A stretch of DNA of 64,000 nucleotides from Dehalococcoidia bacterium (GCA_963663025.1 OY760073.1:1523111-1587110); one strand, 5' to 3'. Positions 34,313-57,572 are shown, numbered from the stretch's first letter. Notes: a model not told the origin generated them from the letters alone. Made by a program: numbers and translations.

Positions 34313-35507
34313 ATGACGGGAGTCCTGCAGGACAAAAACATCGTCCTGGGCGTAACGGGCAGCATCGCCTGCTACAAAGCCCTGGACCTGGCCAGCAAGC
34401 TCACCCAGGCGGGGGCCGGCGTGGACACCATCATGAGCTACGGGGCAACCCAGTTCGTCGCGCCTCTCGCCTTCCGCAGCCTCACCCACCGGCCCGTGAC
34501 CGTCGATGTGTTCGACCCGGACTCGGAGCTGAGCATCGAGCACGTCCAGCTTGCCGGGAGGGCTGACATCGTTGTCGTGGCCCCCGCCACCGCCCACTTC
34601 ATAGCCAAGGCGGCATGGGGATTCGCCGACGACCCCCTGACCACCACCATCCTGGCCACCCAGGCCCCGGTGCTTATCGCTCCGGCCATGGACGGACACA
34701 TGTACGAAAACCAGGCGACCCAGGACAACATCGAGAAGCTAAAGTCCAGGGGCATCCGCTTCGTCGGCCCAGCCAGCGGACACCTTGCATCAGGACTTGT
34801 GGGCATGGGCCGCTTGGTGGAAGTCCCCCAGCTTGTGGGCCACATCAGCGCCCTGCTGGGGAGGGACGGCGACCTTGCCGGGCGCACCGTAGTCGTCAGC
34901 GCCGGGGGCACCCAGGAAGCCATCGACCCGGTGCGCGTGATCACCAACCACTCCTCGGGGAAGATGGGCTACGCCCTGGCCGAAGCGGCCCGGGACCGGG
35001 GCGCCAGGGTGATCCTCGTCTCGGCGCCTACCGGCTTGGACGACCCGGCGTCCCTGGAGGTCATCAAGGTGCGCTCGGCCACCGAGATGCGGGACGCTGT
35101 GCTGGCAGCGGGTCCAGGGCGCCGACGCACTGATAATGGCGGCGGCGGTGGCCGACTACCAACCCTCCGATGTGGCGGGCCAGAAGATCAAGAAAGACAA
35201 CTCGGCGTTGACCATCGAATTGGAAAGGACGCCGGACATCCTCCAGGAGGCCCAGGGCAGCTTCCTGAGGGTCGGGTTCGCTGCCGAGACCGAGGAACTG
35301 CTGGCGAACGCCCGGGACAAGCTGGAGCGCAAGGCCTTGGACCTGATCGTAGCCAACGATGTGTCAGCAGAAGGGTCGGGGTTCGGCGGGGACACCAACA
35401 AGGTGACTCTTGTCGGCAAGTCCGGGGAGGCGGAAGACCTGCCCATGATGTCCAAGCAGGACGTAGCCCATCACATCCTGGACAGGGTGAAGGCGCTGCT
35501 GGGTTAG
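34313..35507 (+). CDS. coaBC: Bifunctional PPC decarboxylase / PPC synthetase, apparent +1 frameshift at GGG 35110-35112
   Basis: GVTGSIACYK, APATA, PAMD, AGGTQEAIDPVR and NHSSGKMG motifs. Removing one G gives AVLAAVQGADALIMAAAVADY, continuing to GFAAET...IVANDV. Confidence 0.92.
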
Positions 35508-35602
35508 CTCAGCCCCGCGGGTTCGGGTGGCGGGCTGCCTTAGTTTCAGCAGCTACCTTCCCGCGAGATCTCGTCATCTGGCGAAGGCCACAGAGTTGCT
35601 CA
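35460..35602 (+). repeat. Junction repeat copy 1: true coaBC 3' end + orphan gcvPB 3' end + about 55 bp extension
   Basis: Minus strand 35547-35509 reads ETKAARHPNPRG*, versus EAKAARHPNLRG* in gcvPB; the extension is shared with copy 3. Confidence 0.9.
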
Positions 35603-35624
35603 GTTGTACGGTATATCATACAAT
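35596..35624 (+). promoter_or_regulatory. Promoter/operator of the TA operon (probably leaderless)
   Basis: TTGCTC-17 nt-TACAAT ending 6 nt before ATG 35631; TTGTA-N10-TACAA palindrome at 35604-35623. Confidence 0.6.
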
Positions 35625-35630
35625 GATGTC

Positions 35631-35930
35631 ATGTACACAATCCTGCGCAGTGCGACGTTTGATCGGTGGTTGCGCAGGCTGCGGGACCTCCAGGCAGTGG
35701 AACGCATCGTCGCCAGGCTGCTGGCAGCGGAGGATGGACATTTCGGAGACGTGAGACCTGTTGGCGACGGTGTGTCCGAAATGAGGATTCGGCACGGACC
35801 CGGATACCGGATTTACTTCATCGCGCAAGGTGCGGAGCTGATCGTCCTGCTTTGTGGCGGGGACAAGGACAGCCAACAGCGAGACATCGAGCGGGCCAAG
35901 AGGATGGCGGCGGAATGGAGGTCCTCATGA
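35631..35930 (+). CDS. RelE/HigB-like addiction module toxin
   Basis: FDRWLRRLRD...GHFGDVRPVGDGVSEMRIRHGPGYRIYF...LLCGGDKDSQQRDI. Confidence 0.92.
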   Translation: MYTILRSATFDRWLRRLRDLQAVERIVARLLAAEDGHFGDVRPVGDGVSEMRIRHGPGYRIYFIAQGAELIVLLCGGDKDSQQRDIERAKRMAAEWRSS

Positions 35931-36283
35931 CTGAGGAATATCGGAGGTTTGACCCAGCGGACTACATCAAGACCGCGAAGGATGTCCGAGGACTCCTCCA
36001 GGCGGCTGCAGATGAGGACCCTGGTGACGGTGTCGTTATTCGAGCTGTGTTGAGGCACATCGCCGGGACCCAGAACATGAGTGCTCTCGCACGCGACACC
36101 GGGCTGAATCGGGGTAACCTCTACGAAGCGTTGTCCGAAGACGGCAACCCCACCCTGGAAACGCTTCTGAAGGTCACCAACGCCTTAGGGTTGAGGCTGC
36201 GCCTTGAGCCGGTGGATAATCCCCTATTGGAGGAGGAACGAGCCGCCGCGGGAATCCCCCACCAGGAACAAGCATCGACGTAG
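35927..36283 (+). CDS. Addiction module antidote (HTH antitoxin)
   Basis: FDPADY...MSALARDTGLNRGNLYEALSEDGNPTLETLLKV; ATGA overlap with the toxin. Confidence 0.92.
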   Translation: MTEEYRRFDPADYIKTAKDVRGLLQAAADEDPGDGVVIRAVLRHIAGTQNMSALARDTGLNRGNLYEALSEDGNPTLETLLKVTNALGLRLRLEPVDNPLLEEERAAAGIPHQEQAST

Positions 36284-55637: not shown

Positions 55638-56770
55638 CGTACGGACCAGAGTCCCCGACATCAGGGTTCATCGACCGCATTCCAGTTCGAAACATCTGGC
55701 TATTGTTGCTTTACGCATCCCGGCTATACCGCGAGCTTCCCGCCCCCCGCCGGGTCGAACTTGAAGACGCCCCGGACGACATACCGCGTCTGGTCGCTGA
55801 AATCCTCACAAACGCCGTGGAACGACGCCTGCGCCGTAACCTGTCCCACGGCTATCAGAGGCGGTCAGCTGATCTCAGCCGGGTACGCGGACGCATCGAT
55901 CTGTTCCGCACGGAACGGCGACAACTGCTGCAACGTGGCCACGTTGCCTGCGTGTTCGACGAACTGACGGTTGACACCCCGCGCAACCGTTATGTTAAGG
56001 CTGCTCTGACCCATATCGCTAGCTCGGTCAGCAGGCTCACTAATGATTCGGACCTTGAACGACGGTGCCGAGATTTGGCTCTCCGCTTAGAGAGGGCTGG
56101 CGTCGTCGGGCACCTCGATCCCCGGTACGCCGGAAGGGCAGTCACACTGGACAACACGGGGTGGATGGACTCTTACGAGCGTCAGATGTTTGCTGCAGCT
56201 AGCCTGGCCTTGGACCTTTCGATCCCGACAGAGCAATCGGGATTGGCTTTATTGCCCGTCGTCAATAGAAGTGAAACCCAAGGATGGAAGCTCTACGAAA
56301 ACGCGGTTGCCGGTTTCTATGATGTCGCACTATCTCATCGTGGCTGGAGGGTAAGGCAAGGGAGACGCATTCAATGGCCCGCCGCGAACCCCTCGCCTGG
56401 TTTACACGCCATCATGCCGGAGATGATCACTGACATAGTTTTGGAGCACCGTGAACATAGTACTCCTGATACCGGTCAAAGAATCGTCATCGACACAAAG
56501 TTCACCTCGATTGTCGGGGTCAGCCAATTTGGGAATCAGACGCTGAAGAGCGGTAACATATACCAGTTGTACACCTACTTGCGCACCCAAGAACAGTCCT
56601 GCGACCCCATGTCGTACCACGCTTCCGGAGTCTTGCTCTATCCGTCTTTGGGTGACTGCTACTACGAATCTGCCATGATTCAAGGGCACCGCGTTATTTT
56701 CGCCACAGTTGATCTGGCCGCGGATAGCCAGACCATCCGCAGTCAACTTCTGCGAATCGTAGACAACTGA
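55634..56770 (+). CDS. mcrC: McrC-family restriction endonuclease subunit
   Basis: IPVRNIWLLLLYA, RGRID, TDIVL...IDTKF...YQLYTY, GVLLYP; ATGA overlap with mcrB. Confidence 0.92.
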   Translation: MTYGPESPTSGFIDRIPVRNIWLLLLYASRLYRELPAPRRVELEDAPDDIPRLVAEILTNAVERRLRRNLSHGYQRRSADLSRVRGRIDLFRTERRQLLQRGHVACVFDELTVDTPRNRYVKAALTHIASSVSRLTNDSDLERRCRDLALRLERAGVVGHLDPRYAGRAVTLDNTGWMDSYERQMFAAASLALDLSIPTEQSGLALLPVVNRSETQGWKLYENAVAGFYDVALSHRGWRVRQGRRIQWPAANPSPGLHAIMPEMITDIVLEHREHSTPDTGQRIVIDTKFTSIVGVSQFGNQTLKSGNIYQLYTYLRTQEQSCDPMSYHASGVLLYPSLGDCYYESAMIQGHRVIFATVDLAADSQTIRSQLLRIVDN

Positions 56771-56811
56771 ACGTTCCCACGGCGTTGACGCATCAACACA
56801 CTTCCGGCCCT

Positions 56812-56965
56812 GTGGGGACGCGCCCCTCCAGGCGATGTGGCCAGCACGGCTAACCAGCGCCGCCCGCACCCAGGTGCCGCCCAGGTCGATGGCAAGGGCA
56901 TAAGGCCCCCCATCGGTACCCTGCTTGCGGTCCAACTTCCCTACCATGTCGCTTGCGGCCAGGAG
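56812..56965 (-). pseudogene. Orphan, diverged copy of the ROK gene 5' end (direct repeat of 52853-53007)
   Basis: MVGKLDRKQGTDGGPYALAIDLGGTWVRAALVSRAGHIAWR versus MVEELDREQGTDGGPFALAIDLGGTWVRAALVTRAGHIAWR; followed by a 1-nt deletion and loss of similarity. Confidence 0.92.
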
Positions 56966-56969
56966 GCCA

Positions 56970-57572
56970 TTAACCCTCCAAGATGCTGTCTAGGGCCTCT
57001 CGCAAATCGTCGGGGTCTGTGGGTCCTGAAAAGACCCGCACCAGGTTGCCTTCCCTGTCGATGAAGAACTTTTCGGGAATCTTCACTACCCCGTAGTCTA
57101 TAGCAACGCTCCCTTTATCATCCAGAAGGTTGGGGTACGGGATATCGAGCTCCGCCACGAAATCCCTCACCTTCCCCTCCGTATCCCAGAGGGCTAACCC
57201 CAAGAATTCGACACCTTCATCCCGGTATTCGGCGTACACCTCCGCCAAGCCTGGGGCTTCGTTCCGGCAGGGCGGGCACCAGGACGACCAGAAGTCCAGG
57301 ACCACCACCTTGCCCTTCAGGGAGGCCAGGCTGAGGGTCTCGCCGTCCAATGAAACGGCTTCGAACAACGGGGCCGGCTCCGGGTCCAGCCAGGCATCTC
57401 CAAAAGATGTGTTGATGCCGGGGCGTCCTATCCTGTTCTCGGACCAGCCCACACCCCAAGCCAGCATTCCGAAGAAAACGGCCAGAGGCACCAAGGCAAC
57501 CACTATGATCAGTGTGCGCTTATGGTTCCCTCTTTTGGTGCTTTCAGGTGCTGTGGGGCTGGCGTCCCTCAA
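56970..57572 (-). CDS. TlpA/ResA/CcmG-type membrane-anchored thiol-disulfide oxidoreductase
   Basis: N-terminal TM, LDFWSSWCPPC, YGVVKIPEKFFID; TTG 57572 overlaps the upstream stop. Confidence 0.88.
   Translation of the reverse strand: MRDASPTAPESTKRGNHKRTLIIVVALVPLAVFFGMLAWGVGWSENRIGRPGINTSFGDAWLDPEPAPLFEAVSLDGETLSLASLKGKVVVLDFWSSWCPPCRNEAPGLAEVYAEYRDEGVEFLGLALWDTEGKVRDFVAELDIPYPNLLDDKGSVAIDYGVVKIPEKFFIDREGNLVRVFSGPTDPDDLREALDSILEG

Follow-up and report, generated by a model that had tools for sequence, protein, structure and literature searches.

Three repeat-bracketed loci and their alleles

We analysed a stretch of 64,000 nucleotides from an uncultured Dehalococcoidia bacterium (GCA_963663025.1, OY760073.1:1523111-1587110; the window), in which accessory genes (cargo) lie at three loci between diverged direct repeats of resident gene ends. 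The window corresponds to G000:C1:1523111-1587110 of the source genome G000, a single contig of 2.35 Mb that is 93.9% complete by markers. The three loci, i.e., coaBC/gcvPB (locus 1), aldehyde dehydrogenase (ALDH)/GT2 (locus 2) and ROK/TlpA (locus 3), had been proposed in a preliminary description made from the sequence, and all of them are recovered by self-BLAST as well as by a repeat search of the window (Table 1). As had been stated there, every gene end is retained once at full length within its gene (live copy) at all three loci; the spare copy is an orphan. The repeat length given (140-170 bp) fails for locus 1, where the junction copies A-D are pairwise 79-89% identical over 46-143 bp (with the coaB end in A, B and C and missing from D), and loci 2 and 3 measure 181 bp (90% identity, E 2e-65) and 158 bp (52850-53007 vs. 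56809-56965, 88%, E 4e-50), respectively. The cargo had been named correctly with regard to the toxin-antitoxin pair, DUF262 (GmrSD_N) and McrBC, and wrongly as to "related" lipoproteins, since the META-domain and the locus 2 lipoprotein are not detectably related (BLASTP E 0.073). No integrase lies in the window, as reported before; the accompanying remark on tRNA sites needs the correction that two tRNA genes are present (8696-8875), far from the three loci.

Alleles were compared with five congeners (G001-G005), among which G005 is collinear with G000 at 86.9% identity. Both kinds of allele that one might look for in relatives, i.e., empty and alternatively filled ones, were found. At ALDH/GT2 and ROK/TlpA, 5/5 congeners have a single junction copy and no cargo. 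The coaBC/gcvPB junction is empty in G004 and differently filled in three genomes, namely with the toxin-antitoxin pair alone (G005, 79-bp repeat), with another gene plus antitoxin (G001, 50-bp repeat), or with a methylase-like gene, an antitoxin stump and the META gene (G002, 38-bp repeat); in G003 the sequence is broken at the site. Among nine loci examined in other genera, no repeats were seen at this junction. Within G000, copy C has the downstream spacer of copy A and starts with the bases of the antitoxin end. Because it combines these two, the G000 allele probably arose from single-cargo alleles that were stacked or swapped via the junction copies.

We also checked the junctions against separately assembled contigs from two runs (X1 and X2) of one study, with the source sample possibly among them. 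Contigs span copy A and the cargo-to-B, B-to-C-to-D, GT2-ROK-cargo and McrC-to-TlpA junctions with 0-1 differences; for the ALDH left-copy-to-cargo junction no bridging contig is among the pieces listed. No contig skip that would fit an empty allele is listed either. Absence cannot be concluded from this, given that the contigs are interrupted at the repeats, and the skips that are listed were disregarded, their short side being just 19-42 letters. Summed depth is high over the locus 2 lipoprotein, which reflects reads of other organisms and not copy number. The idea that the repeats are a strain-chimeric assembly artefact has two points to build on: both runs come from one study and may include the source sample, and the assembly contains at least one indel error. 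That is, coaBC has a frameshift by one extra base near 35110, which is likely an assembly error given a single run-X2 contig without that base. The bridged junctions and the repeat-bracketed inserts at coaBC/gcvPB in G001, G002 and G005 make this explanation hardly credible. Metagenome scans revealed no conspecific strain (ALDH-end pattern, 0 matches; locus 2 lipoprotein, 0 relatives).

Table 1. Resident genes, cargo genes and repeat copies of the three loci (window positions).
Feature	Position	Strand	Remarks
Locus 1
coaBC, resident	34313..35507	+	Pfam Flavoprotein/DFP, TIGR00521; final 48 bp are the live coaB end
Junction copy A	35453..35602		live coaB end, ~40 bp orphan gcvPB end, ~55 bp spacer common to copy C
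RelE/ParE-family type II toxin, cargo	35631..35930	+	TIGR02683, E 3e-37
HI1420-type antitoxin, cargo	35927..36283	+	TIGR02684, E 8e-25; 11 bp of the stop-codon region in common with coaB at the join
Junction copy B	36269..36451		orphan coaB end, ~125 bp orphan gcvPB end
Lipoprotein with META domain, cargo	36732..37682	+	PF03724; same site in G002, another bracketed site in G005
Junction copy C	37709..37855		orphan coaB end, short orphan gcvPB end, spacer common to copy A
GmrSD_N (DUF262) protein, cargo	37884..39551	-	PF03235, E 1e-19; stretch of 52-53% GC
Junction copy D	39755..39885		live gcvPB 3' end only
gcvPB, resident	39760..41217	-	NF003346, E 5e-213
Locus 2
Aldehyde dehydrogenase, resident	48236..49645	+	PF00171
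Left copy	49549..49729		live ALDH end, intergenic stretch, orphan GT2 end
Lipoprotein, cargo	49806..50846	-	no Pfam family; homologues 85-92% identical in other families of the order; second copy in G000
Right copy	51066..51246		orphan ALDH end, intergenic stretch, live GT2 end
GT2 glycosyltransferase, resident	51190..51957	-	PF00535
Locus 3
ROK-family gene, resident	51982..53028	-	PF00480; likely start near 52988 from empty alleles
Left copy	52850..53020		live ROK 5' end and leader
258-aa protein, cargo	53012..53788	-	no Pfam, NCBIfam or PADLOC family
McrB-like AAA+ (AAA_5) protein, cargo	54204..55637	+	PF07728; NF008457 below cut-off
McrC, cargo	55634..56770	+	NF007277 over cut-off
Right copy	56809..56978		orphan ROK 5' end, live thioredoxin-like gene end
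ResA/TlpA-like thiol-disulfide oxidoreductase, resident	56970..57572	-	NF002854 and TIGR00385, both below cut-off

Recurrence in the genome

Local self-BLAST of the whole of G000 yields private repeats, 88 of them direct and 12 inverted. Based on gene calls from our own simple model (used for G000 and G005), we hand-picked 13 loci at which a live protein-gene boundary is paired with an orphan copy of 35-257 bp, such that the pattern is recurrent; none of the inverted repeats joins a gene end to an orphan copy. Intragenic and paralogue repeats as well as ambiguous pairs near 360.7, 377.2 and 463.7 kb were left out of this count. Beside the three window loci, the targets are ino1, ligT, an unnamed 76-aa gene, a glnS-like gene, a ribD-like gene, DUF255, an MFS gene, an epimerase, an SDR gene and ftsH. 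The repeats are private to each locus and vary in length and sequence between loci. Cargo spans 0.7-4.2 kb and includes HTH antitoxin-like, DUF433/DUF5615, nucleotidyltransferase, DUF2283, DUF4062 and DnaJ-domain genes; one cargo contains a broken IS1595 fragment. At these 13 loci G005 is exactly empty in six cases, differently or less filled in five, and shares the cargo in two. It also has its own set of bracketed loci, including one with a 348-bp ftsK-like end.

To relate these loci to gene gain in general, we considered all lineage-specific segments of the two genomes. A private long direct repeat flanks 8/69 segments found only in G000 (six at gene boundaries, one at a tRNA-Ser end, one intragenic; a further paralogue row was removed, reducing 70 segments to 69) and 2/23 segments found only in G005. 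Private inverted repeats occur at one and zero segments, respectively, and none of 400 mismatched boundary pairs, which served as null against chance repeats, scores. Boundary scores are bimodal, i.e., they are either 54-634 or within the background of 15-29, with none between, which led us to drop the idea of long duplications as a tail to the distribution of short microhomology indels. The long-duplication route is thus recurrent but minor, accounting for about 1/10 of the lineage-specific segments.

Origin of the spare arms and route of entry

We compared the orphan arms with the live gene ends on the codon level. In G000, 65/118 differences are synonymous, compared to 25.5% expected from neutral decay (p 9e-12), or 41% with drift in the live copy as well (p 0.001). 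For the 19 arms with a G000/G005 orthologue, the synonymous/non-synonymous counts are 83/59 for orphan vs. live and 106/57 for orthologue vs. live (Fisher p 0.29), and 86/142 differences fall on third codon positions (p 3e-11 vs. 1/3, 0.007 vs. 1/2). The orphan base equals the orthologue base at 45/142 of them (summed by hand). Single arms give 6/0 for ALDH (in 27 codons, plus a stop-to-stop change), 6/0 for ino1 and 11/1 for the G005 ftsK-like gene; the orphan ROK 5' end shows 7/3 and one 1-bp gap. Four toxin-antitoxin loci in other Dehalococcoidia genomes have arms with 7/3, 21/13, 9/1 and 7/2, the others there being uninformative. Since the spare arms differ from the live gene as orthologues do, they are likely foreign alleles from related lineages. 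At ALDH and ROK almost the entire left copy is similar to the empty allele, and all but the last part of the right copy is foreign-like; a second bracketed site in G005, which holds the META gene, shows the reverse.

We therefore favour, with a probability of roughly 60%, that the loci are insertions with long target duplication in which a single RecA-driven crossover brought in foreign DNA of a related lineage. Single-crossover entry, one of the routes named in the preliminary description, is thereby the likeliest one. From the observed anatomy, empty alleles, orthologue-like arms and three short joins (see below) we infer transformation, circularisation and RecA dependence as follows. In the incoming DNA, the cargo would be linked to 35-350 bp from a resident gene boundary, and this DNA would probably be taken up by natural transformation, for which ComEC (full-length in 5/5 genomes), DprA and RecA (both in G000) are at hand. 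It would probably be circularised, or have its free end joined, via 10-12 bp of short homology, with no dedicated recombinase. A one-sided single RecA crossover within the boundary piece would then produce partly foreign direct repeats; the target is indeed duplicated, not deleted, at these loci. Insertions that break a gene would be lost and those that leave it whole kept, which would create a bias for gene boundaries. The preferential targeting of boundaries assumed earlier is not needed, as survival of whole-gene insertions suffices (Furuta, Abe and Kobayashi 2010, PMC2853133). Where a repeat ends at a stop codon, the donor would need only a different neighbour behind the gene, and in the repeat lists of G000 and G005 ten loci have a repeat end within 5 bp of the stop. 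Once in place, the repeats would probably serve as landing pads for the stacking or swapping of single-cargo alleles at coaBC/gcvPB.

Several observations weigh against this account. Arms that span both gene ends, as in the window, need two new joins or an earlier duplication. The GT2 end is identical over 46 bp between the locus 2 copies; because congeners vary there at 9-23/57 sites, this end is host-derived or converted rather than foreign. Mixed or decayed arms occur as well (gcvPB-B, 9/10; ribD, 6/10; epimerase, 2/5), and the arm of the MFS gene shows no difference over ~110 bp, which local duplication explains equally well. No donor was found, as none of the five congeners is closer to the arms than the host's own gene is. 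The arms were hand-picked, with pairs at locus 1 that are not independent of one another. Finally, Ku, as a joining enzyme, was not found in 5/5 genomes.

The identical tracts at GT2 (46 bp) and MFS (~110 bp) are what one would look for if staggered double-strand breakage with fill-in had made identical copies in a donor lineage and recombination between lineages had later replaced the live copy, giving the copies the look of alleles. Two window cargos are type IV restriction-like, and double-strand breakage is suggested by Furuta 2010 (PMC2853133). On the other hand, most cargos are not nucleases (toxin-antitoxin pairs, lipoproteins, a nucleotidyltransferase), and orthologue-like divergence over whole arms requires an extra step per locus. 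Furthermore, breakage predicts neither the short-homology joins nor the coaB footprint reported next, so that we consider it unlikely.

Where the other context of a cargo is known, the join can be inspected, which holds for three joins, all of them short-homology joins. First, 11 bp at the join (GACGTAGCCCA) are common to coaB and the stop region of the antitoxin. Second, another toxin-antitoxin target matches at 10/11 positions. Third, the META gene at the second G005 site lies between 151-bp repeats (77%), and the site is empty in G000. This unit starts with 26 bp that match coaB at 24/26 positions (window 35385-35410), the coaB genes being the sole matches within five mismatches in either genome (G000, G005), and it is fused to its new target via a 10-of-12 match. 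The footprint together with the join is, as read from the sequences, direct evidence of a META cargo that moved away from the coaBC site and acquired another arm through joining at short homology. The DNA of the GmrSD unit has matches in 0/250 other genomes of the class, and that of the McrBC unit in 2/250.

We further asked how often the same cargo is bracketed elsewhere. We compared 80 toxin loci, of which 53 are at least 77% identical; together with G000 they cover 41 flanking contexts. Only 7/53 close toxin-antitoxin loci (six sites, one of them the G005 locus) are tightly bracketed, by unrelated direct repeats of 66-197 bp. L058, L087, L089 and L096 were dropped by eye as hairpin-repeat matches, and the wider brackets of L053, L060, L063, L068, L075, L085, L093, L098 and L100 were not scored as tight. 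For the locus 2 lipoprotein, 0/5 close homologues are bracketed. A viral scan with the toxin gave 27 loci, the best 57% identical, and no close copy. Comparison of the ends of 26 units revealed no common motif or inverted repeat, except among the related coaBC units. We also considered whether the toxin-antitoxin unit has a fixed right end and dropped this idea, as two targets join at the antitoxin stop and others 10-240 bp past it.

These counts bear on the cassette system that the preliminary description had envisaged, with units carrying their own homology arm. In its strongest form, a dedicated host-encoded, competence-linked system would splice a 35-350-bp boundary arm onto cargo and thereby create self-targeting, excisable mini-circles that stack and pass between co-resident species. 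This would account for the distinct class seen in the bimodal boundary scores and for the same cargo having different arms at different sites. In addition, one X1 contig at ALDH/GT2 reads like a circle joint, i.e., right-copy-left followed by left-copy-right, with seven left-copy letters on the right copy. Given its chromosomal depth and the 32- and 46-bp identical tracts of the locus 2 copies around the switch, an assembler collapse is as likely as a circle joint and explains the contig as well. The same cargo is mostly unbracketed (46/53 toxin-antitoxin loci not tight; lipoprotein 5/5), only about 1/10 of the lineage-specific segments have a long duplication, and there are neither shared ends nor inverted repeats. 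XerD-like half sites are not enriched either (two matches near the 28 edges compared, 2.5 expected; a weak test). The cassette idea does not stand up well to these numbers, and we regard a dedicated system as rather doubtful, slightly more so than breakage.

Integrase islands typically duplicate gene ends as well. The e14 and phage 21 islands at icd replace the gene end and leave a diverged duplicate of a protein-gene end, such that decayed islands of this kind, or cis-mobilised remnants whose integrases are lost or encoded elsewhere, have to be considered. Recombinases abound in some congeners (G001, 10 tyrosine recombinases; G004, 18 large serine matches vs. 0 in G000), and two tRNA-type repeats are known (a 42-bp tRNA-Ser end in G000, a whole tRNA-Leu in G035). 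In e14/icd-type islands, each integrase has one target and the element supplies the live end, whereas here many targets are used with no integrase, and the host supplies the live end at ALDH and ROK, where similarity to the congeners lies with the live copy instead of the orphan. The 13 unrelated targets would require as many integrases. G000 itself has two tyrosine recombinases, none of them in the window and both far from the loci; they are conserved in 5/5 genomes and likely XerC/D. We found no large serine recombinase, resolvase, IS1634, DDE_Tnp_1 (PF01609) or Y1 transposase in G000 (IS3, IS6, IS30, IS110, IS256 and others were not searched). With regard to integron cassettes, there is no integrase beyond the two conserved tyrosine recombinases and the units have no shared ends (no attC model was run). 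Two broken IS1595 pieces are present in the genome. The 0.7-4-kb cargos scanned hold no integrase remnant. Decayed islands are accordingly quite improbable.

Finally, the units might be non-autonomous passengers of an IS1634/IS1549-type transposase. Repeats of 8-514 bp are reported for IS1549 and IS1634 (PMC2266710), i.e., a variable duplication of tens to hundreds of bp as observed here. Those elements have a transposase and fixed ends, neither of which was found here: NF033559 (IS1634) and PF01609 have no match in G000, NF033559 has none over cut-off in five genomes, and the units show neither terminal inverted repeats nor fixed ends. Since the copies would also start out identical, this is very improbable.

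Relation to described systems and further observations

The original report of long target duplication, in Helicobacter pylori, is said to be that of Nobusato et al. 2000, which Furuta and colleagues cite. Insertion with long target duplication is defined by an insert <20 kb, a variable repeat >30 bp, an empty site in a relative and no other mobile gene (Furuta 2010, PMC2853133). In the same source, repeats often span a start or stop codon with the gene staying whole, are imperfect (e.g., 368/393, 384/412) and are biased to naturally competent species. Restriction breakage and a release-and-reinvade cycle are proposed there, the latter left unproven. The loci described here agree in that repeats >30 bp are single-copy in the empty relative, inserts are <20 kb with no integrase or intact transposase, and repeats are private and variable. 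A restriction-like gene is part of the McrBC and GmrSD_N inserts and not of the toxin-antitoxin and lipoprotein cargos. The survey covered restriction-modification genes (lone mcrA or orphan M genes were also accepted), while cargo here is mostly toxin-antitoxin pairs, lipoproteins and small genes without known function. It contains, in the parts available, no arm-divergence analysis (the word "synonymous" is absent), in contrast to the orthologue-like arms found here, and we observe ~13 loci per 2.35-Mb genome, three cargos stacked at one site and a relocation with footprint. The loci are thus likely further members of this already described class and not a new mobile element.

A laboratory precedent for the proposed entry is available from E. 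coli, where trimmed, re-circularised plasmid DNA with one-sided homology leads to 109-950-bp duplications by a recA-dependent single crossover (PMC3240628). Homology-facilitated illegitimate recombination (HFIR), described in the same source, joins at 3-10-bp microhomology. One-sided homology, variable target duplication and short-homology joins are common to these and our loci; classical HFIR combines insertion with deletion and not with duplication as here, where circularisation and RecA dependence would have to be assumed. Gene-turnover hotspots lacking mobile elements and integrases have been linked to natural transformation (PMC5635113) and hold variable genes between core genes as here, but recombination there lies in both flanking core genes and "direct repeats" are not mentioned in the available text. 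Also described are displacement arrays that leave orphans (PMC5361080) and tandem duplications made by transformation (PMC3784515). Among the papers listed in literature searches, which mostly exclude subscription papers, none reports the pattern in Dehalococcoidia; supplementary figure 7 of Furuta 2010 may hold closer cases.

As to how long target duplications arise, this lineage offers ~13 cases per genome, with empty and alternative alleles in complete congeners, arms resembling working foreign alleles, and footprinted joins. This speaks for host recombination of transforming DNA rather than for a nuclease or transposase, and exact junctions are available. The lineage also reveals an integrase-free route for defence and surface genes between Dehalococcoidia families, with a lipoprotein that is 94% DNA-identical across families. 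Surprise is limited by the share of only ~1/10 of lineage-specific segments and by the class being already described.

Some further observations concern the cargo and its sites. The locus 2 lipoprotein family (window 49806-50846; G000:C1:744992-745999; L252-L255) shows 85-94% DNA identity across families of the order and has many variants in runs X1/X2. The 210 bp upstream of its window member (50860-51070) match another Dehalococcoidia toxin-antitoxin locus (L084:7388-7597) at 82%. Upstream of ALDH, G001 (L016:3987-7419) carries a further 3.2-kb insert between 126-bp repeats (78%), which is empty in G000. The same toxin-antitoxin pair as at locus 1 is found in G035 (L033:5425-6519), where it lies between two complete tRNA-Leu genes (114-bp repeat, 96%). 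In G000 (C1:331427-336027), a 4.5-kb methylase-bearing insert lies between perfect 42-bp copies of a tRNA-Ser 3' end; it is empty in G005, has no integrase and is an att-type remnant.

Elsewhere in the window, 22597-25105 and 26024-26961 consist of internal repeats (periods of ~750-770 bp and 320-400 bp) that resemble a large repetitive surface protein, and clusters of palindromic dispersed repeats (22152-22543, 27421-27832) flank this stretch (22597-26961). Two low-GC open reading frames with no Pfam family (31075-32095) lie beside an acyl-CoA dehydrogenase-like gene and have no long flanking repeat. Outside the window, G000:C1:818021-819002 is a 491-bp perfect head-to-tail duplication and a possible assembly artefact. 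G000:C1:1627742-1629646 and 1803286-1805801 are 98-99% identical to G005, compared to 87% overall, which points to recent interspecies exchange.

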